A stretch of 9,055 bases of DNA from Candidatus Thorarchaeota archaeon (GCA_003345555.1 PRDJ01000054.1:1-9055), one strand, 5' to 3'; counted from the first letter of the stretch, positions 1,022 through 9,055 are shown. Numbers and translations are program-made. Notes: generated by a model from the letters alone, not told the origin.

Positions 1022-1141
1022 AGGCTTTGTTCCTCACAGTCTCTTGGGAGAATGGTGGCACTAGTTCGCATTGGCAGAGTGGCGTCTGGTGCTCGCTATT
1101 TGCCCTGTGGTCTCCAATGAAAGGCTATTTGTTCCCCGTCC

Positions 1142-1154
1142 AAATACTTTATGT
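1142..1154. promoter_or_regulatory. AT-rich TATA-like element in the divergent GNAT/GNAT spacer
   Basis: AAATACTTTATGT, about 50-60 nt upstream of ATG 1204. It reads ACATAAAGTATTT on the other strand, so it could serve either gene. Confidence 0.3.
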
Positions 1155-1203
1155 CCAAATGGCCCTATTAGATGAAGACAGCTCACCGAAGGTCGGGTTT
1201 GCC

Positions 1204-1710
1204 ATGTATGACTATGCTGAAGTTTCGATTCGCCGTGCCGAGCTCGGTGAAGTGAACACGGTCCGGTCTATCCTGCAAGAGGCTTACGCAGGCCCAAAGA
1301 AGCGCTTGCCAAAGGAACCCACAGGCGTGCAAGATGGTCTAGATAAGATATCTCGGTCAATCCAGATGGGAAATGTCTACGTGGCAATCATCGGGGACTC
1401 TATAGTTGGAACAATGAAAGTGCAGCTTCAGGGTCAGGTAGGAACCATAAGCCGTGTTGCTGTCCTTGAGAGATTTCGTAATAGACGGGTCGGAACTTTC
1501 CTGGTGGAATACGCGGAGAATCTTCTGACTCACATGGGTGCAAAATCCGTTCAGCTCGAAGTGCTCAGCGCTAGGGACTCTCAGGCCAAGTTCTACGAGG
1601 GCATCGGTTACAAGCCCGTCGAACGTCATCAGAGTTCCGGAATAGATCTCATGGTAATGCAGAAGGACCTGTATGAGTCCGAACAGGAAGACAAGGAAGA
1701 GGATGTCTAG
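1204..1710 (+). CDS. GNAT family N-acetyltransferase
   Basis: 168 aa from ATG 1204 (MYDYAEVSIRRAELGEV...). It has the IRRA..D/E N-terminus, motif A ISRVAVLERFRNRRVGTFLV, then LEV...AKFYEGIGY and an acidic tail. The ORF-track extension 1015-1203 has no GNAT character and overlaps the opposite gene's start. An alternative ATG lies at 1159. Confidence 0.88.
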   Translation: MYDYAEVSIRRAELGEVNTVRSILQEAYAGPKKRLPKEPTGVQDGLDKISRSIQMGNVYVAIIGDSIVGTMKVQLQGQVGTISRVAVLERFRNRRVGTFLVEYAENLLTHMGAKSVQLEVLSARDSQAKFYEGIGYKPVERHQSSGIDLMVMQKDLYESEQEDKEEDV

Positions 1711-2822
1711 GGGATTATTTCACACCCATTGTTGAATTCAGGATAGTTGAAATCCTCAACCGCGACGGTACCGTCGTCAATCAGTTCCTTTACGTGAGGC
1801 ATCTTGATGCGAAGGCTCTCAATCAGGTGTCTGACGGTATTGCAGACCTTCTGATAGCCGCCTACTCCCCATAATCTCTCTTTGTTTGCGAACAGGCACC
1901 TTCCTCCGCACACCGTGAACTCTTCACACGATGGGCAAGGTTCTTCCACACTCATTTTGTTCCTAAGCAGGCTAGGTCTCGTTGTCCAAATATCTCCCAC
2001 AATCGAGAAAGGCCAGTCTGGTGATATGGGGCAGACGCCAATTGATCCGTCTACATGGATGGCAAACGTATCCAATCCAGATCCGCACCGGAGCCCCGAG
2101 GGTTTTCCTGTGAGCAGTGTGTAGGTAACAGGAAGAAATGGCACAATTCCTTCGACAATGCCGCCTTCCATTGTCCTGACCCAATCGTCGACAAGTTTCG
2201 TTATCCCCGGATTGTAAGATTCTGCGACCCAACCATCAAAGTCTGTCCAGTTGCCTTCGGCATCCCAGATGACGTTAAGCTGCCAGTGGACGTGGTCGAA
2301 TCTCGGCTCAGTTAGTCCTAGCAAGTGATGCACGTCTCTGTAGATGTCACTCTGCTGTGAGACTGCCATGCGTGCTACGACGTCCCCTTCGTATCTGATC
2401 TTTCTGAGCCATTTGACATTCTCGATGACATGGTCATACACACCGGGCGCCCTGTATCCATCGGTTGTGCTCCTTGTACCATCGATGGACACCAATATTG
2501 AGTGAAAGCGTTTGACATACGGCTCTGGGATTTTACTGAGCCGCAGGGCATTTGTCTGCAACTGGAATCGGGCGCTGGGAAACCTATCCATGATCTGAGC
2601 TATGAGGGGTATGCGCAAGGTTGGCTCCCCTCCATAGAGCATCAGTTGGACATCCTTGTCATGACTCAAGAATGAGGCAAGGTCGTCAAGAGAGTACTGC
2701 AGCTCCGCATCGGGCCCTCGTTCTTCCCCTCCGTGGCAATATGCGCAGTTGAGATTGCACTGCCGTGTGAGGACCAGATGGTAGTTCAAGGCAAGAGACC
2801 TCGTCTTCGAGCTGGCTCGCAT
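1707..2822 (-). CDS. Radical SAM/SPASM domain protein, AF0577/TIGR04084-like (putative peptide-modifying)
   Basis: C22xxxC26xxC29 (CNLNCAYC), GGEP motif, QTNA and SIDG motifs. SPASM cysteines: C246-x12-G-x4-C264, C296xxC299-x5-C305-x3-C309, C327. The C-terminus YPEFNNGCEIIP is one I recall for the archaeal AF0577 family. The true start may be TTG 2789 (MNYHLVLT...). Confidence 0.92.
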   Translation of the reverse strand: MRASSKTRSLALNYHLVLTRQCNLNCAYCHGGEERGPDAELQYSLDDLASFLSHDKDVQLMLYGGEPTLRIPLIAQIMDRFPSARFQLQTNALRLSKIPEPYVKRFHSILVSIDGTRSTTDGYRAPGVYDHVIENVKWLRKIRYEGDVVARMAVSQQSDIYRDVHHLLGLTEPRFDHVHWQLNVIWDAEGNWTDFDGWVAESYNPGITKLVDDWVRTMEGGIVEGIVPFLPVTYTLLTGKPSGLRCGSGLDTFAIHVDGSIGVCPISPDWPFSIVGDIWTTRPSLLRNKMSVEEPCPSCEEFTVCGGRCLFANKERLWGVGGYQKVCNTVRHLIESLRIKMPHVKELIDDGTVAVEDFNYPEFNNGCEIIP

Positions 2823-2889
2823 ACAGATTGACCAATAAGGATTTTCAAATGTAGAGGCACTTGTCCCAGATGAAAACGATTATGTTGTC

Positions 2890-2903
2890 AAGTCGCGCGA
2901 CTT
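2890..2903. promoter_or_regulatory. Perfect 14-bp palindrome AAGTCGCGCGACTT (candidate operator)
   Basis: Seen directly. It lies in the 95-bp divergent spacer, 14 nt upstream of the peptidase GTG and just downstream of an AT-rich GAAAACGATTATG patch. The regulatory role is inferred. Confidence 0.45.
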
Positions 2904-2917
2904 ATTCCTGACCAACA

Positions 2918-4411
2918 GTGAAGTATTCTGCAGCATCTATCCTCATCCTACTCATCCTTGGTAGTGCTCCGGTGGCGACTGCCAATTATGCAGTGAACGG
3001 ACCGGAGTCAGCCGGGGGAAGTACTCTTGCCGCTGACGGAGCAGTGATTCTTGAAGGTGTGCCCTACGTGTGGCAGGAGATAAATGGCCTATGCGCCTGG
3101 GCCACGCTTTCAATGGTTTGTCAATACTTAGGTGTTGACCTAGACCTGCATGACGTACTGGCTATCACTGGCGTTGGTTTCTCTTTTGCCTATATCAGGT
3201 ACAATGACACCTTGCTCATGGTTCCGGGAGCCCTCTATCAACAAGTGGAACCGACTGAGTTCCTCGCAAACCTGTATGGTCTAAACCAGACTGTTTACCT
3301 AGGTTCCGGGATCTCCAACCTCGAGGGACAGATTGGATACCTCAATTCACAGGGAATCAATGTTGGAGTGCTTTCCAGTCAGGAAGACGCAATGCAGTTG
3401 ATGAAGCAGCTCATTGACGACGGTAGACCTCTCATCATTAGCGTCGATCCTCGTTGGCTGCCCGCTCACGACTATGATGAATTCAGGATGCACAACAGTT
3501 CGAGCGGTGCCCACGGTGTCGTCGTTGTAGGCTACAATGATACTGATGGCACGGCCACCATCATGGATCCTGGCGTGGGCTCATTCGGAGACAGCTTTGG
3601 TTATCCGATTGACGGCCGGGGTAACTACACAAGAATCAGTTATCCGAACTTGGGCCTCGCATGGGGAAGCCGGGATTGGATTAGCGTTTCTTTGCTGCCG
3701 GGTGGAACGCCAGTGCAAGATGTGCCCTCATATCTGGGGCCTTACATCCGCGATAGGTTGCTTGGCAGCTCATCTTCGTATGCTCCTGGAAGTCCGTATG
3801 GGTACATCTGGGGCTTTGGCGAAGGTGCATTCAGGAGAATGAGTTCTGACATGACTCCGGATGGTCTGTCATCATATCTCAGTGTGTTCAATGGGATTCC
3901 GGATGAAGTCTATAACAAAGCGCTTCTGCTCCTCTTCATAGGACTTGGGCTGGAGGCCCAGACAACCCTTCAATATCTTTCCTTCAGGGCCGCCCTCGAG
4001 AAACTTTCGTTTCTCATGTCTACGGTGGATCTAGCAACCTTCAGCACTGAGGCTGCCAAAGCATTGCCGCATTTTGACGCCTTGGCAGATAACCGTAGCC
4101 TGACAAACCCGTTCAACATCACACCGCATGAGACTATTGTTTCAAACACGTTCCATCACTTGGTTGACATGTACAACTCAACGGGCAATCTGACTTCTGC
4201 ACTTGCCTCGGTTGCGGACAACCTGACAATCATCTCCGGTCACCTAGGTGCGATTGCAGACTCTTGGAAAGCGGCAGGGCTTGCCTTAGAATCGATATGG
4301 CCAACTAATCCGTTGATTGTTTATGCTCCATTCATTGTGGTCGGGGTGAGCGCAGGTGTGATTCTTGCAATAGGGATACTTCGCTGGATACGAAAGAAGC
4401 CCTCTCAGTAG
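2918..4411 (+). CDS. Secreted, C-terminally anchored papain-like cysteine peptidase/transacylase (C39-like / BtrH_N-like)
   Basis: 497 aa, GTG start. Signal peptide at aa 1-~22. VPYVWQ53..C59AWATLSMVCQYLG, GRPLIISVDPRWLP, H199GVVVVGYND and IMD217P give a Gln/Cys-His-Asp papain-like set. It has 10 N-x-S/T sequons and a C-terminal TM helix (IVYAPFIVVGVSAGVILAIGIL) plus a basic tail (RWIRKK). Confidence 0.85.
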   Translation: MKYSAASILILLILGSAPVATANYAVNGPESAGGSTLAADGAVILEGVPYVWQEINGLCAWATLSMVCQYLGVDLDLHDVLAITGVGFSFAYIRYNDTLLMVPGALYQQVEPTEFLANLYGLNQTVYLGSGISNLEGQIGYLNSQGINVGVLSSQEDAMQLMKQLIDDGRPLIISVDPRWLPAHDYDEFRMHNSSSGAHGVVVVGYNDTDGTATIMDPGVGSFGDSFGYPIDGRGNYTRISYPNLGLAWGSRDWISVSLLPGGTPVQDVPSYLGPYIRDRLLGSSSSYAPGSPYGYIWGFGEGAFRRMSSDMTPDGLSSYLSVFNGIPDEVYNKALLLLFIGLGLEAQTTLQYLSFRAALEKLSFLMSTVDLATFSTEAAKALPHFDALADNRSLTNPFNITPHETIVSNTFHHLVDMYNSTGNLTSALASVADNLTIISGHLGAIADSWKAAGLALESIWPTNPLIVYAPFIVVGVSAGVILAIGILRWIRKKPSQ

Positions 4412-4418
4412 GTATGGT

Positions 4419-6560
4419 CTACTTCCGACTTTTGAGAATGAATGCAAGGATTACCGAAGCTAGTGCGACAGCAGTCACAATTACGTACGGTGTCAGAGTC
4501 TGCCAGAAGTTAATAGTAGTTGTCGGACGAGAGTAGTAACCAGAGACGACGATGGCTGAGTTTCCCCAGATATCTGTGGCGTTGATTTCAAAATTGACAG
4601 TAGTTGCTGTTACTCTTGCAGGTATTGTTCCTTGGTACCCTAGGGCACCCAGCTCCATTTCCGAACTATAGCTGAAATTGGCAGAACCGACGCGATAGGT
4701 GTAGTGGAGCATTACATTTCTGATTCTGCTTCGGTCCTCAATGTAGGCCCGCAGCACGACGGTTTCAGCCGGAGTCGGAGATCCAGGTATAACATAGAAC
4801 GATTTCAGCTTGGGAGCTTCTGTATCTAGCACAGGGTAGTATTCTGAATTCGTGGTTAGCACCAAAGACGAATTGGGTTCAAATGAGAGAACTTTGAACG
4901 GTCCGGATCCGATAGCGTCTTGTACATTTGGTTCCCAGTTGAGCGGGTTCTTGCCTTCCCAGACATGCCTCGGGAGTATGGGCAAAGCACCTAGTAGACG
5001 AAAACTGAACATGTCAAGGTCGTCATAATTGATTCCTGCCACGTAGTCTCCTAGAGTCTTTACACCTGCTAACAAATTCGAGTAAGCAGTTACTGAGCTG
5101 TTGGCGTAGCACTCCAATGTGAAGCGATAGTCTTGAGCATCAACTGCAACGCCGTCTGTCCAGAGGGCATTGGGGTCGATGTAGAACTGAGTCCGGCATT
5201 GAGATGCATTAAGGTCCGGAACAAGACCAAGATAGAGCATCTCCCACGATGTGGCAAGACGAGGAACCGCTCGGCCATCAAGCGTTGTCTCCAGCGAGGA
5301 ATCGTAAACCAGTAGATATGGATTGAAGAAGCGTTTCGAGATCCAGTCACTGTTGATGACTATCCCTGTTCTGAAAAGATTGAGCGAACAGAAGAAGGAG
5401 TCGAAAAAAGCGGGCAAGACTGCAATTCTCATCTCGTTTGGCATTCCTGTTCTTGCGGTTATGCTAACGGGATTCCAAGGACCAAACGCTCCCGCAAGCG
5501 AGTCGTTCACCCATCCTTGGAACCGTGCATCATTGTAAACGGACAGCCACCTGTACGCGAACAACGGGATAATTGGACATAGGTCTCTGACTACTCTCAC
5601 CGCCTCCAGACCTATTGCTCTTGCTTGGTCGAGAAGGATGTTATCCATATACTCCCACGCCAACTGGTTGAGTCGCGAGTCATCTATGTTGGCCACGTTC
5701 TCGCCGTCCACTTCTCGCATCGAGCTGAGGAAGGTGGTTGCGATCCATTCGAAGCCATACTCGTCCATAGTCTGGTGGTAGAGTGCCAGACTGAAGCTTT
5801 CATTGTGTGTTTGGATTCTGTCCTGAAGAACTGCATACTCCATCGGTACAATTGTATTGTTGATGCCTGATGACAACAGATTCGCGGAGATAATGGCGGC
5901 TGTCTCATTCATTCCTTCCGTATCGTTAGGATACCAGAGCGTGAATGAAATCTCTGTGCCATTTGGAGCTTCAACCAAGGAGTCGTTATCGACATCTAGC
6001 ATCCCTGCCATGGCAAGCTCATTCATTGCGCTGCCCAGATTCGCATCGTAGAACAACCCGCCTTCATTCTTCTCTATCGAGAACTCGTTGCATAGGGGCA
6101 GGGCGAAGTCTATGGGATCGGCTTCTCCGTGCATTGCGGTGGAAGTAATCCATGTCTTGTTCGCTGCAAATGCCATCGCTCGTCTCAGGTGGGAGTCGTT
6201 GAGGGGGGCCATGCGACTGTTTATGACAAGCATGCATCCAAGGATGTCATACGCCCACTGCAATCTCAAGCTGCTATAGCTTCCGACGATGCCATAGTCG
6301 GTCGCGTTGATTCTATGGCCGAAGACATCGGCCTCGCCAGTATCAACTGCGGCCAATGCACTAGTCAGATTCAGATATTGAGTCACAATGATTCTGTCGA
6401 CAGTGCCGCCATGGTAAATCGATTCAGATTCCCCTTGGCTGGCAATCATATGTATAGGACATTGTCCACTGAATGCCGGAGCTTGCATAACTTGGCAGCT
6501 TGCTTGCGGCAGCAATATTGCTATCATGAATGCAATGACAATGAACCGAAGACTCTCCAT
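4419..6560 (-). CDS. ABC transporter family-5 (OppA/DppA-like) extracellular solute-binding protein with C-terminal Ig-like domain and TM anchor
   Basis: Likely start is ATG 6560 (MESLRFIVIAFMIAILLPQA signal peptide); the ORF track starts at TTG 6584. Family-5 motifs: VINSRMAPLNDSHLRRAMAFAANK, PIIPL, VYDSS..TLDGRAVPRLATSWE, WTDGVAVDAQDYRFT, LPILPRHVW, IGSGPFKV...LVLTTNSEYY. It has 16 sequons and a C-terminal TM helix followed by KSRK. Confidence 0.9.
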   Translation of the reverse strand: MESLRFIVIAFMIAILLPQASCQVMQAPAFSGQCPIHMIASQGESESIYHGGTVDRIIVTQYLNLTSALAAVDTGEADVFGHRINATDYGIVGSYSSLRLQWAYDILGCMLVINSRMAPLNDSHLRRAMAFAANKTWITSTAMHGEADPIDFALPLCNEFSIEKNEGGLFYDANLGSAMNELAMAGMLDVDNDSLVEAPNGTEISFTLWYPNDTEGMNETAAIISANLLSSGINNTIVPMEYAVLQDRIQTHNESFSLALYHQTMDEYGFEWIATTFLSSMREVDGENVANIDDSRLNQLAWEYMDNILLDQARAIGLEAVRVVRDLCPIIPLFAYRWLSVYNDARFQGWVNDSLAGAFGPWNPVSITARTGMPNEMRIAVLPAFFDSFFCSLNLFRTGIVINSDWISKRFFNPYLLVYDSSLETTLDGRAVPRLATSWEMLYLGLVPDLNASQCRTQFYIDPNALWTDGVAVDAQDYRFTLECYANSSVTAYSNLLAGVKTLGDYVAGINYDDLDMFSFRLLGALPILPRHVWEGKNPLNWEPNVQDAIGSGPFKVLSFEPNSSLVLTTNSEYYPVLDTEAPKLKSFYVIPGSPTPAETVVLRAYIEDRSRIRNVMLHYTYRVGSANFSYSSEMELGALGYQGTIPARVTATTVNFEINATDIWGNSAIVVSGYYSRPTTTINFWQTLTPYVIVTAVALASVILAFILKSRK

Positions 6561-6630
6561 GCGGGCGCCTGCTCCCAACTGCAAACTGGCTGATTCAACC
6601 TTTGGGCTAGGTCGGCTGGTCTGGTTCTAG

Positions 6631-6638
6631 ATATATGC
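6631..6638 (-). promoter_or_regulatory. Possible TATA-like element for the solute-binding protein gene
   Basis: GCATATAT on the minus strand, about 70 nt upstream of ATG 6560 (about 47 nt from TTG 6584). It is the only AT-rich element in the spacer. Confidence 0.3.
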
Positions 6639-6664
6639 GTAGCGAATGACGCGAATTCAAGTGA

Positions 6665-6678
6665 CCCTGCAACCAGGG
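6665..6678. other. Small GC-rich hairpin CCCTG-CAAC-CAGGG just after the phhB stop
   Basis: 5-bp perfect stem with a 4-nt loop, 9 nt downstream of TGA 6688. There is no following U-tract, so function is uncertain. Confidence 0.2.
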
Positions 6679-6687
6679 AGGCCAGTT

Positions 6688-7035
6688 TCATTTCATCTCG
6701 TCTATCTTCGCAGCCAGAATGAAGTCATTGTCGAAAAGACCTTTGATTGCATGTGTCCACAGCGTCAGCGTGACCTTGTTCCAATCAATCAGTATGTTTG
6801 GGTGATGCCCTTGTTCCTCTGCGATGTCAGCGACCTTATTGACAAAAATCATCGCCGCTTTGAAATCTTTGAACTTGAACTCCTTCCGTATTTTGTCGAT
6901 TCCTTCGTCCTTGATTCTTGTCCAACCGGGAACAGCAGGGAGCATCTCCCGTATCTTGAGGTCTCCAAGAGGCGGTACACCACCCCGACAGGGTACACAT
7001 TTCAGTGCAGCAAGTTCCTTTCGGTCTGTAGGCAT
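6688..7035 (-). CDS. phhB: Pterin-4-alpha-carbinolamine dehydratase (4a-hydroxytetrahydrobiopterin dehydratase, COG2154)
   Basis: 115 aa. The full catalytic pattern E-x3-H-H-P-x5-W-x9-H-x8-D is present (EEQGHHPNILIDWNKVTLTLWTHAIKGLFDND). It also has FKFKDFKAAMIFVNKVA, NDFILAAKID and an N-terminal CVPCRGG. Confidence 0.95.
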   Translation of the reverse strand: MPTDRKELAALKCVPCRGGVPPLGDLKIREMLPAVPGWTRIKDEGIDKIRKEFKFKDFKAAMIFVNKVADIAEEQGHHPNILIDWNKVTLTLWTHAIKGLFDNDFILAAKIDEMK

Positions 7036-7042
7036 ATCAAAT

Positions 7043-7047
7043 CCTCC
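7043..7047 (-). promoter_or_regulatory. Shine-Dalgarno site of phhB
   Basis: GGAGG with a 7-nt spacer before ATG 7035 (GGAGGATTTGATATG). Confidence 0.65.
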
Positions 7048-7067
7048 AACGGATTGTCTGTCCCCCT

Positions 7068-7083
7068 CAAAGCAAAAAGAAGA
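7068..7083 (-). terminator. T-rich tract (possible archaeal oligo-T terminator of the MBL gene, or TATA-like element for phhB)
   Basis: Minus strand reads TCTTCTTTTTGCTTTG, about 95 nt after the MBL stop and about 33-48 nt before the phhB ATG. Confidence 0.3.
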
Positions 7084-7123
7084 TATCGCTTGTGATGGCC
7101 TGCCTTATTGCAGTGGTCACGGT

Positions 7124-7135
7124 CACACGCGTGTG
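7124..7135. repeat. Perfect 12-bp palindrome CACACGCGTGTG, overlapped by tandem GGTCAC x2 (7115-7126)
   Basis: Seen directly in the MBL-phhB spacer. Confidence 0.35.
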
Positions 7136-7178
7136 GGGGCTTCCATCCATTTCAGCGAATCAGGACTGTGGCGCGTCA

Positions 7179-8096
7179 TCAAGGAATGGGCAGAAAATGC
7201 CCCTCACCGGTCTCGGCCAGCTTCCCGTGACTCACAAGCGACTTCAAGTGGTGCTCAATCATCCATCTCTCGAACTGGAGCATCACGGGACTTGATAACG
7301 AGGGGTAGATTATCGGGTTTACCATGATTTCATTGACGGACGTTGCCCCGCTTCTTACAGCTCTGAGGACCTTCTCTTCTCTTGCATCGAAGTGCATCAT
7401 GTATTCCTCCAGTGCTGCCTTGTAGTTCTGAATGGCGGGCTTCTCCAGATGACCGCTAATCAAACAACGATAGTCTGATTCCTGCAGTTTGCGAACCGTT
7501 TCTTTGAAGGATTCAATCGATGAGTTCGGATGACCATAGAATGGACCGAATGGCGTGCAGTCAATATCTGCGCCGAACAGGTAACGGGGTTCCACAATCT
7601 CAACGCACATATGATCGGGAAGGTGTCCAGGTGTCAGAATCATTTTGAGTGTAAGATTGTCGAGAGCTATCCTGTCACCATCTGAAAGGACTTCATCCAC
7701 GCGTCCGTCATCAAGTGCACCATGCATTCGTTCGTTAACCATATCTTCCCAGAGGCGGCGTACTGGATGCCCCTGATGGAATCCAAGGAATCTCTTCATC
7801 TCCTCTTTGTCGTTGAACAGAGGTGCAGTAATCTCATTCGCGGCAATCCTGCACTTTGAGATTCTGTTGAGCCTTACCGCATGGGTGATGTGATCAGGAT
7901 GAATGTGACTCAGCACAATCGTATCGATATCACGGAGTTCAAGACCTAGCTTCGCTAGAAGAGATCGCAGAGCTTCCACGGAGCATCCAGGGTCGACAAC
8001 GACGATTTCTCCTGATTGAACCACGAGCGTGTTGCACTTGGGGAAGGGTCCACCCACGACCACATAGATTCCATTTCCCATGTCAACGGTGCTCAT
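7179..8096 (-). CDS. MBL-fold metallo-hydrolase with probable C-terminal winged-helix domain
   Basis: 305 aa. Motifs: VVVDPG, SHIHPDH (HxHxDH), TPGHLPDH, GADID, ISGH. The C-terminal REEKVL...IEHHLKSLVSHGKL segment resembles a beta-lactamase-associated wHTH. Ends in tandem TGA TGA stops. Confidence 0.92.
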   Translation of the reverse strand: MSTVDMGNGIYVVVGGPFPKCNTLVVQSGEIVVVDPGCSVEALRSLLAKLGLELRDIDTIVLSHIHPDHITHAVRLNRISKCRIAANEITAPLFNDKEEMKRFLGFHQGHPVRRLWEDMVNERMHGALDDGRVDEVLSDGDRIALDNLTLKMILTPGHLPDHMCVEIVEPRYLFGADIDCTPFGPFYGHPNSSIESFKETVRKLQESDYRCLISGHLEKPAIQNYKAALEEYMMHFDAREEKVLRAVRSGATSVNEIMVNPIIYPSLSSPVMLQFERWMIEHHLKSLVSHGKLAETGEGHFLPIP

Positions 8097-8134
8097 CGCG
8101 ATATGTCTCCCGGGATCTGTAAGAGATGGACTAT

Positions 8135-8163
8135 CATCTGACTGTGGCTCATTAAGTCAGATG
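8135..8163. repeat. Perfect 9-bp inverted repeat CATCTGACT-N11-AGTCAGATG (operator or hairpin)
   Basis: Seen directly in the 81-bp spacer between the 3-TM gene stop (8178) and the MBL start (8096). Confidence 0.55.
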
Positions 8164-8177
8164 GCAGAGTGTTGTCA

Positions 8178-8567
8178 CTATGCCAGTGCTCGTACTCTCG
8201 TCTCAGCCGCACTTCTGACAGCCTGCCGCCACTTTCTGAAATGGCTCCAGATGACAGGCAGCATGGCCGCACTTAAGAACAGAATGATGAGCAGTGTATC
8301 AACTATCGGCGCTGTCGATGAGAAGGTGGCATGGACTAACCATCCGTCAATCCAATAGCCTGTTACGACACCGAGAGTGACAGGAATCATGGCCACCAGA
8401 AGGAGAAAGAAGACAAGAAATGACTTGCGAGCAGACGATTGTATGAACCTGGCGAATACACCTAGGAATTTGTGTTTCTGCCAACGCGTTCCTTCTGCCA
8501 CAATCCAGAAGACGACAAACAAGAAAATGACAATGAAGAATGGAATAAAGGCCAATTCGTAGTACAT
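8178..8567 (-). CDS. Hypothetical membrane protein, about 3 TM helices
   Basis: 129 aa, ATG start. Hydrophobic segments at about aa 5-24, 50-72 and 88-108, with Lys/Arg-rich loop 1 and C-tail (positive-inside). It fills the gap between lig and the MBL gene on the same strand. Confidence 0.8.
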   Translation of the reverse strand: MYYELAFIPFFIVIFLFVVFWIVAEGTRWQKHKFLGVFARFIQSSARKSFLVFFLLLVAMIPVTLGVVTGYWIDGWLVHATFSSTAPIVDTLLIILFLSAAMLPVIWSHFRKWRQAVRSAAETRVRALA

Positions 8568-8574
8568 CGCATGG

Positions 8575-8598
8575 CACTTCCCAAGCGTCTGGGGAGTG
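8575..8598 (-). promoter_or_regulatory. 5'-UTR hairpin containing an SD-like sequence
   Basis: mRNA strand CACTCCCCA-GACGCT-TGGGAAGTG forms a 9-bp stem with one C-A mismatch. The 3' arm holds GGAAGTG, 7 nt before ATG 8567. Confidence 0.3.
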
Positions 8599-8615
8599 TT
8601 GCGTTATGGCTTGGC

Positions 8616-8635
8616 ATATATATCCATTGCTTAAA
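8616..8635 (-). promoter_or_regulatory. TATA-like elements upstream of the 3-TM gene
   Basis: TTTAAG (8635-8630) and ATATATAT (8623-8616) on the minus strand, about 50-68 nt upstream of ATG 8567. Confidence 0.4.
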
Positions 8636-8734
8636 GCCGCCGAGTGACGGAGGCACAGAGTACCAACGGAGCTGTTGCTATTGCTTACCATTGTCAGCTA
8701 TCCCACACTGCCATATGACAGAATCATATTCGGT

Positions 8735-9055
8735 TCATTTCGCTTTGCGCTTGAACTGAGCATTGTATGCTCGTCTTAGCTCCTCAAGCGTTGTAGCATC
8801 TTCAGGCCGCCTGTCGTCCCTGATTGCCGTTATACGTGCAAACCTGAGAGCCATCCCCGCTTCGTACCGCGGACTGTCTTGAATGTCTGAAGCCAAAACC
8901 TCGACAACCACTTCTGGCCTCACCTTTACTATGTGACCATCCCGCCCAATCTGGATACCAAGCAGTCTGTCTGTCATGACTCCAAATTCATAATCTGTGA
9001 GACCCTTGAAGGTCTTGCCTACCATCACATAGTTGCCAGTCTCCTCATCTCTGAC
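8735..9055 (-). CDS. lig: ATP-dependent DNA ligase, C-terminal OB-fold domain (partial; 5' part beyond the window end)
   Basis: The frame is open to the window edge: VRDEETGNYVMVGKTFKGLTD...VRPEVVVEV...SPRYEAGMALRFARITAIRDDRRPEDATTLEEL. LRFARI..IR.D is ligase motif VI. The ORF-track start at 9028 is an internal GTG. Confidence 0.93.
   Translation of the reverse strand, partial: VRDEETGNYVMVGKTFKGLTDYEFGVMTDRLLGIQIGRDGHIVKVRPEVVVEVLASDIQDSPRYEAGMALRFARITAIRDDRRPEDATTLEELRRAYNAQFKRKAK

Follow-up and report, generated by a model that had tools for sequence, protein, structure and literature searches.

Can a solute-binding protein of an ATP-binding cassette (ABC) importer carry the two halves of its chain in swapped order and still be a sound protein? 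The question is raised by a stretch of 9,055 nucleotides from Candidatus Thorarchaeota archaeon (GCA_003345555.1 PRDJ01000054.1:1-9055), referred to here as the window. A gene on its minus strand encodes a family-5 binding protein of the OppA/DppA type (cluster C), which an earlier note, made from the DNA alone, had read as circularly permuted. ABC-importer binding proteins are textbook models of hinge bending and scaffolds for biosensors, and they have been circularly permuted by engineers. We present an analysis of the block order, predicted structure, distribution and genomic context of this protein.

Order of the conserved blocks

Amino acid (aa) positions of the window protein are given in the numbering of its open reading frame (ORF), counted from the TTG codon at 6584. 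The Pfam profile PF00496 (SBP_bac_5) matches the protein with 129.5 bits (cut-off 32.4) in two stretches. When scanned alone, aa 62-270 correspond to profile positions 148-345 (E 4e-18) and aa 440-598 to positions 3-153 (E 1e-18), and each half by itself exceeds the gathering cut-off, with 66 and 67.6 bits, respectively. The canonical order, taken as lobe 1a, extra domain, lobe 1a, lobe 2, lobe 1a, is not the one found, since profile positions 148-345 precede positions 3-153. The comparison with PF00496 proposed in the earlier note thus yields two non-collinear partial matches and no single collinear full-length alignment. The nine motifs on which that note was based are all present at the residues it gave: VDRII at 62, SALAAVDTGEAD at 75, RRAMAFAANK at 134 and CPIIPL at 336 in the first half; and YDSS at 427, DGRAVPRLATSWE at 436, the motif opening with WTDG at 475, GSGPF at 559 and NSEYY at 579 in the second.

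A hidden Markov model (HMM) of 570 positions, built from 39 canonical relatives, places aa 61-382 on positions 220-540 and aa 424-595 on positions 62-223. The two pieces overlap by 3 positions only (220/223) without any second copy, and between them they hold one complete copy of all the structural elements, the extra domain included. Because the pieces abut and nothing is repeated, they represent a single copy of the fold cut once. In the same manner, residues 265-506 of the Vibrio chitooligosaccharide-binding protein correspond to aa 127-362, and its residues 68-190 to aa 465-585. As judged from these sequence comparisons the order is truly swapped, far beyond chance. The exchange of two halves by circular permutation is supported by Pfam, by the canonical HMM and by the structural alignments described below.

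Structure model

The binding core (aa 54-608) was modelled with AlphaFold from an alignment of 102 sequences of diverse permuted proteins, giving a predicted local distance difference test (pLDDT) value of 94.3 and a predicted template modelling (pTM) score of 0.90; pLDDT remains above 90 as far as model residue ~530. When the input was limited to 22 close orthologues, the first half folded well and aa ~429-532 had pLDDT values below 50. In the larger-alignment model the binding core is a confident single compact fold.

The best 50 Foldseek matches of the core model are all cluster C binding proteins, including AppA, the chitin-oligosaccharide-binding protein, NikA, DppA and TM1223. Each of these matches spans at most ~340 alignment columns, with template modelling (TM) scores by query of 0.38-0.48. 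VIA-align lays model residues 1-326 on the known chains from residue ~185-240 to the C-terminus (Z 25-27.6), for example on DppA 203-507 and AppA 213-520. Whatever solved chain of the OppA/DppA/NikA type is taken, sequential aligners superpose only ~300-320 of the model's 555 residues; superposition of the N-terminal part only is what such an aligner must give for a circular permutant.

Junction and cut site

The structural alignments stop at aa 378-381 (model residues 325-328), and the 'GGxLR' strand, N-terminal in canonical proteins, stands in the family consensus a few residues past the junction. The junction, put in the earlier note at aa 358-384, can be narrowed to ~379-386 (nucleotides 5427-5450), at the upper end of that range. 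In other members of the family a gap of 0-10 residues separates the two HMM pieces, and in less diverged members the first ends at HMM position ~537 and the second starts at ~31. Since the second piece starts 0-10 residues past the end of the first, the old termini are joined almost directly.

The limits of E. coli DppA we take to be 1-33, 183-262 and 479-507 for lobe 1, 34-182 for the extra domain and 263-478 for lobe 2. The cut, at canonical residues ~200-220 (~200-203 on the DppA scale), would on these limits lie inside lobe 1, just past the return of the chain from the extra domain, so that both hinge crossings would be kept.

Relatives and ancestry of the permuted form

Approximately 30 clusters are 44-67% identical to the window protein over the full ~715 aa; those with names belong to Thorarchaeota, and one to Lokiarchaeota. 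In the alignment of 22 orthologues 90 columns are invariant, and these occur in the two halves as well as in the tail domain. A library-wide search with 50% clustering produced ~80 further representatives with 20-28% identity, collinear over aa ~50-580, and canonical proteins appeared in it with two non-collinear stretches each. A cut at HMM positions 212-243 (mode 216-218) is common to 231 of the proteins fetched. A profile of the junction only gave full-length matches in 72 of the 76 genomes of the family to which the window belongs, usually several per genome; further families in the same phylum, several in number, also gave strong matches. The arrangement which the earlier note mentioned for Thorarchaeota-like proteins is accordingly that of a conserved family, mostly of Thorarchaeota.

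A survey of taxonomy extends the permuted form beyond the archaea. In addition to a Lokiarchaeota member (P0092), the ~220 cut was found in a Thermoprotei metagenome-assembled genome (P0123), in Bathyarchaeia (P0329, P0335-P0337) and in bacteria of the Synergistaceae (P0346, P0348, P0349, P0360, P0362). The Synergistaceae proteins are ~565 aa long and end directly past the binding core, their second HMM piece reaching to ~554. A lead from the Atlas to a 'Bacillota' cluster (TM 0.79 over 511 residues) was set aside because its label was not verified; the confirmed bacterial members are labelled Synergistaceae.

For phylogenetic analysis the permuted sequences were re-ordered to the canonical order via the HMM, and maximum likelihood (ML) trees were calculated. 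The ~220-cut class forms one side of a single branch in a tree of 49 permuted and 40 canonical rows (Shimodaira-Hasegawa-like approximate likelihood ratio test, SH-aLRT, 93), and does so again in a larger tree with 65 permuted rows including those of Bathyarchaeia and Synergistaceae (SH-aLRT 97). The trees indicate that the permutation arose once, in an ancestor common to hundreds of archaeal and some bacterial proteins. The 4-5 changes between permuted and canonical forms which appeared in the first tree were rejected, as they came from six rows with a cut at HMM ~367 whose re-ordering was wrong or missing. Within the ~220-cut class, the subfamily of the window protein sits on a long stem branch of 1.27 substitutions per site; the window protein is a member of a fast-evolving subfamily of ~715 aa and a diverged orphan copy.

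The cut at HMM ~367, inside lobe 2, is a second permutation of the same fold, present in P0128, P0141, P0155, P0159 and P0368-P0371; several members bear signals of the bacterial lipoprotein type. This class falls in two places among the canonical proteins in the trees and may have had two origins. P0128, P0141 and others had been candidates for A-B-A duplication intermediates, and were found to be single copies cut at ~367 instead. P0149 (549 aa, permuted) was considered as a bacterial lipoprotein form and discarded as probably a frameshift-broken gene. At locus L016 (6241-8911) it is followed by an overlapping ORF of 359 aa; since this next ORF overlaps and is also SBP_bac_5 in the gene table, P0149 has probably been split from a longer multi-domain gene. 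Permuted units are also found in giant surface proteins: P0040 (4308 aa) combines two permuted with two canonical units in a single chain, P0038 (2427 aa) contains two permuted units with PKD/Big domains, and P0045 (2586 aa) has a permuted unit joined to a subtilase (Peptidase_S8) and PKD-like domains.

Export signal, stalk and anchor

Hydropathy in the first 45 aa reaches a maximum of 2.1, and in the full-length model a helix (4-25) leads into a disordered linker. The protein opens with a typical signal peptide, whose cleavage site is predicted. The domain at aa ~590-692 is all-beta in the full-length model (pLDDT ~80); it has no match in Pfam and likewise none in NCBIfam. It is homologous to repeats of NosD/beta-helix surface proteins (weak Big_/DUF7743 matches), and its Atlas structure matches are to immunoglobulin (Ig)/LTD-like domains with TM 0.72-0.81. 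At the C-terminus the hydropathy maximum in the last 45 aa is 2.49, corresponding to a model helix at 685-712 of the cluster representative P0002, and a hydrophobic run followed by basic residues is present in 22 of the 22 aligned orthologues. A hydrophobic C-terminal anchor was found in 211 of the 231 permuted proteins and in three of the five canonical paralogues in the same genome. As these canonical paralogues are anchored too, C-terminal tethering is not special to the permuted form.

Transporter context and proposed function

Of the seven family-5 genes in the genome, five are canonical and two permuted; Opp-type transporter genes form four sets, on contigs 35, 39, 12 and 43. The second permuted protein, encoded on contig 39 (7007-8827, 606 aa), aligns collinearly with the window protein (23% identity, E 1e-24). 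Its gene follows immediately on permease genes of the OppC and OppB types, with two oligo_HPY ATPase genes close by. The region 1116-8827 of that contig (L010) specifies a complete Opp-type importer, in which both ATPases are of the oligo_HPY kind and the permeases are OppC_N and OppB-type. The binding protein of this system possesses a Thr-rich linker and a C-terminal anchor, and belongs to a family whose members, more than 500 in number, carry only the general annotation of ABC substrate-binding proteins. Another member of the clade, P0313, is also located beside an Opp operon. The permuted form is, since clade members sit in OppBCDF-type operons, a working component of importers. On contig 43, the oligo_HPY match (12724-12843) of one Opp-type ATPase gene is partial, with an in-frame TAG, and this may represent a broken gene or a sequencing error.

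We regard the window protein as probably an exported, C-terminally anchored cluster C binding protein with a permuted chain, which feeds an Opp-type importer encoded elsewhere. Its chain would start at canonical residue ~203-220 in lobe 1, cross the first hinge into lobe 2 and come back via the second as far as the old C-terminus, to which the old N-terminus is attached almost without a spacer; the 'extra' domain would follow, then the end of the core at canonical ~200-220, the Ig-like stalk and the transmembrane helix. The cleft between the two lobes should still close on a ligand as in a canonical binding protein, because both hinge crossings and a full copy of every element are kept. A peptide or an oligosaccharide would be captured at the cell surface and handed to an Opp-type importer elsewhere, the best partner candidate being the contig-39 system because it already uses a permuted binding protein. 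The ligands of the nearest solved relatives are chitin oligosaccharides, mannosides, peptides or nickel.

Orphan binding proteins which use an importer encoded elsewhere are common, an example being MppA with OppBCDF. The canonical family-5 gene on contig 1 is an orphan as well. Since orphan family members are known, a missing adjacent transporter does not exclude membership of cluster C, and the simplest reading would be that of an accessory receptor which uses an importer encoded elsewhere.

Several points weigh against this interpretation, in part or as a whole. The window contains no ABC permease or ATPase gene, and none lies within 10 kb of any of four orthologues, so the link to a transporter is indirect. 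None of the equivalog cut-offs of NCBIfam is approached, the best being Opp4A with 56.7 bits versus 650. The long stem branch and the gained Ig-like domain would also fit a change of function. With regard to the permutation itself, the remaining 229 residues of the model (327-555) lie outside the superposition, the aligners used being sequential, and the identity of the second half rests on the sequence profile matches together with the confidence of the whole model. The ML trees were quick LG+G4 searches, and the first of them, with its wrongly re-ordered rows, was ambiguous.

The alternative which survives best is that the orphan subfamily serves as a surface receptor or capture module together with a C39-like peptidase or a radical S-adenosylmethionine (rSAM)/GNAT neighbourhood and not with an ABC importer; peptides could, for instance, be held for processing, or sensed. 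The neighbour at 2918-4411 (plus strand) is Peptidase_C39_2/BtrH_N-like; it has an N-terminal signal peptide, is anchored by a transmembrane segment at the C-terminus, and is thus a surface cysteine-peptidase-like protein. An rSAM gene and GNAT genes lie beyond it. Its convergent adjacency to the binding-protein gene recurs in the window and at four orthologous loci from three other genomes. The retention of an anchored neighbour at these four loci would suit the alternative, but convergent genes are not co-transcribed, and the order of the whole region around the orthologues (histone deacetylase, amidohydrolase, metallo-beta-lactamase, rSAM, GNAT) is conserved, so the adjacency may be plain synteny. 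The alternative also draws on the long stem branch with its gained Ig-like stalk, and on permuted domains serving as modules in giant surface proteins, one of which (P0045) is fused to a subtilase. The absence of transporter genes nearby could be taken in its favour as well, but binding proteins with an importer elsewhere are common and four Opp-type systems are available in this genome. Given the conserved order of the region and the convergent genes, we rate a functional link with the C39-like neighbour as unlikely, and likewise a role of this kind for the orphan subfamily.

More doubtful still is a combined proposal, in which the permutation is an adaptation that moved the chain ends to the membrane/translocator face of lobe 1, easing the attachment of stalks and domains without disturbing the cleft, and in which the orphan module is a peptide receptor acting with the C39-like peptidase and not with an ABC importer. 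In M. tuberculosis DppABCD the translocator contacts are the hinge and N-lobe residues 221-246 (PMC10954201). As these contacts closely follow the cut site on a rough, approximate mapping, the new termini may face the membrane. Any advantage of the new termini is presumptive.

That the swapped order is an artefact or the mark of a decaying gene (a mis-assembly, the fused remains of tandem genes, or an A-B-A intermediate) can safely be dismissed, for although tandem family-5 genes are common, tandem fusion is the classical route to permutation and metagenome-assembled genomes can be chimeric, the same order recurs in 231 proteins from many assemblies and sources, the two pieces amount to exactly one copy with no repeated segment, the frame is intact with signal peptide and anchor present, conservation runs across the junction, and the model is a confident compact single fold.

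Gene, feature coordinates and neighbouring ORFs

The ORF list has a single long minus-strand ORF in the window, at 4419-6584, opening with TTG at 6584. The probable start is the ATG at 6560-6558 (residue 9), which is the first in-frame ATG and the point at which the orthologues begin; the stop is the TAG at 4421-4419. The product from the ATG is 713 aa long and its reading frame is intact. The start/stop check and the orthologue starts agree with the limits of 4419-6560 given in the earlier note. P0002 (713 aa) differs from the window product at one position only, S719R, in the cytoplasmic tail. The features are collected in Table 1.

Table 1. Features of the gene for the permuted binding protein, in window coordinates
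Feature	Position	Strand	Evidence
Whole gene, permuted family-5 (cluster C) solute-binding protein of 713 aa	4419..6560	-	ORF list, translation, start/stop check
Signal peptide, ORF residues 9-30 (basic residue, hydrophobic run, ...PQASC)	6495..6560	-	Sequence, hydropathy, model; cleavage site predicted
Segment A, aa 61-382, normally the C-terminal ~320 residues (second lobe-1 stretch, whole of lobe 2 (domain III), final lobe-1 strand)	5439..6404	-	Canonical HMM 220-540, Pfam profile 148-345, VIA-align
Junction, aa ~379-386, ancestral C-terminus joined to ancestral N-terminus	5427..5450	-	Structural alignments, family consensus, HMM pieces
Segment B, aa 383-587, normally the N-terminal ~200 residues (first lobe-1 strand, cluster C 'extra' domain, GSGPF...NSEYY strands; end of the binding core)	4824..5438	-	Canonical HMM 62-223, Pfam profile 3-153, PDB-chain residues 68-190
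Ig-like beta-sandwich 'stalk', aa ~590-692, particular to the ~715-aa subfamily	4509..4817	-	Full-length model, homologous repeats, Atlas matches
C-terminal transmembrane anchor, aa ~697-717, and basic cytoplasmic tail KSRK	4422..4502	-	Hydropathy, model helix, alignment of 22 orthologues

Between the binding-protein gene and the metallo-beta-lactamase gene the window has two overlapping plus-strand ORFs of 149 and 167 aa (6646-7327), neither with a Pfam match. At loci L011 and L014 the metallo-beta-lactamase gene is followed by a gene of ~700 aa for a DsbH-type thioredoxin, immediately upstream of the binding-protein gene; no such gene came to light in the window when its longer ORFs were scanned with Pfam.

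Significance

Here the largest class of these proteins (the OppA/DppA type) has been permuted in nature, long ago and with great success. The permuted form shows where the fold tolerates new termini, and supplies a scaffold, ready for use, whose ends emerge at another surface. In Thorarchaeota the most frequent receptor for peptide/oligosaccharide uptake is of this kind, and the gene lineage is common to archaea and to bacteria of the Synergistaceae. Automatic annotation and collinear profiles cover hundreds of Asgard, Bathyarchaeia and Synergistaceae proteins only partly. The window gene taken alone is one more member, from an orphan subfamily, and carries moderate weight.

Comparison with known systems

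The canonical cluster C proteins used for comparison were B. subtilis AppA (1XOC), the Vibrio chitooligosaccharide-binding protein (1ZTY, 6LZV), E. coli DppA (1DPP/1DPE), NikA (1UIU) and T. maritima TM1223 (1VR5). The window protein belongs to the same Pfam family, is exported and shares their set of conserved blocks, the extra domain among them; over ~300 residues, covering lobe 2 and the neighbouring parts of lobe 1, the folds align with Z 25-27.6, and permuted paralogues occur in OppBCDF-type operons. It differs from the canonical proteins in that residues ~1-200 come after residues ~203-507, the old termini being fused and the new ones lying inside lobe 1, and no solved chain matches the whole of the model, TM by query never exceeding 0.48. 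The window protein also has an Ig-like stalk and lacks adjacent transporter genes.

The sugar and peptide transporters of Sulfolobus and Pyrococcus include binding proteins of the oligo/dipeptide class with a signal peptide and a C-terminal anchor. The window protein resembles these anchored archaeal proteins in its cleavable signal, linker, C-terminal helix and basic tail, but its tether leaves the core at canonical ~200-220, whereas theirs leaves from the canonical C-terminus.

Our literature search returned no described permutation of OppA/DppA-type (cluster C) proteins, and a precedent in cluster B only. This is TpMglB-2 (Tp0684) of Treponema pallidum, the founding member of the circularly permuted 'Type Ic / Cluster Bc' of sugar-binding proteins (PMC4990184). 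Most members of Cluster Bc are membrane-tethered, and the authors speculated on a link between topology and tethering (PMC4990184). TpMglB-2, which keeps ligand binding, is like the present case a natural permutation of an ABC-importer binding protein in a conserved family. It is set apart by its description as a cluster B protein (glucose/galactose type) and not cluster C, of unrelated sequence and with another cut site; all listed sequence and structure matches of the window protein are to cluster C. The likeness to TpMglB-2 is an analogy for the workings of a permuted binding protein and not a family relationship.

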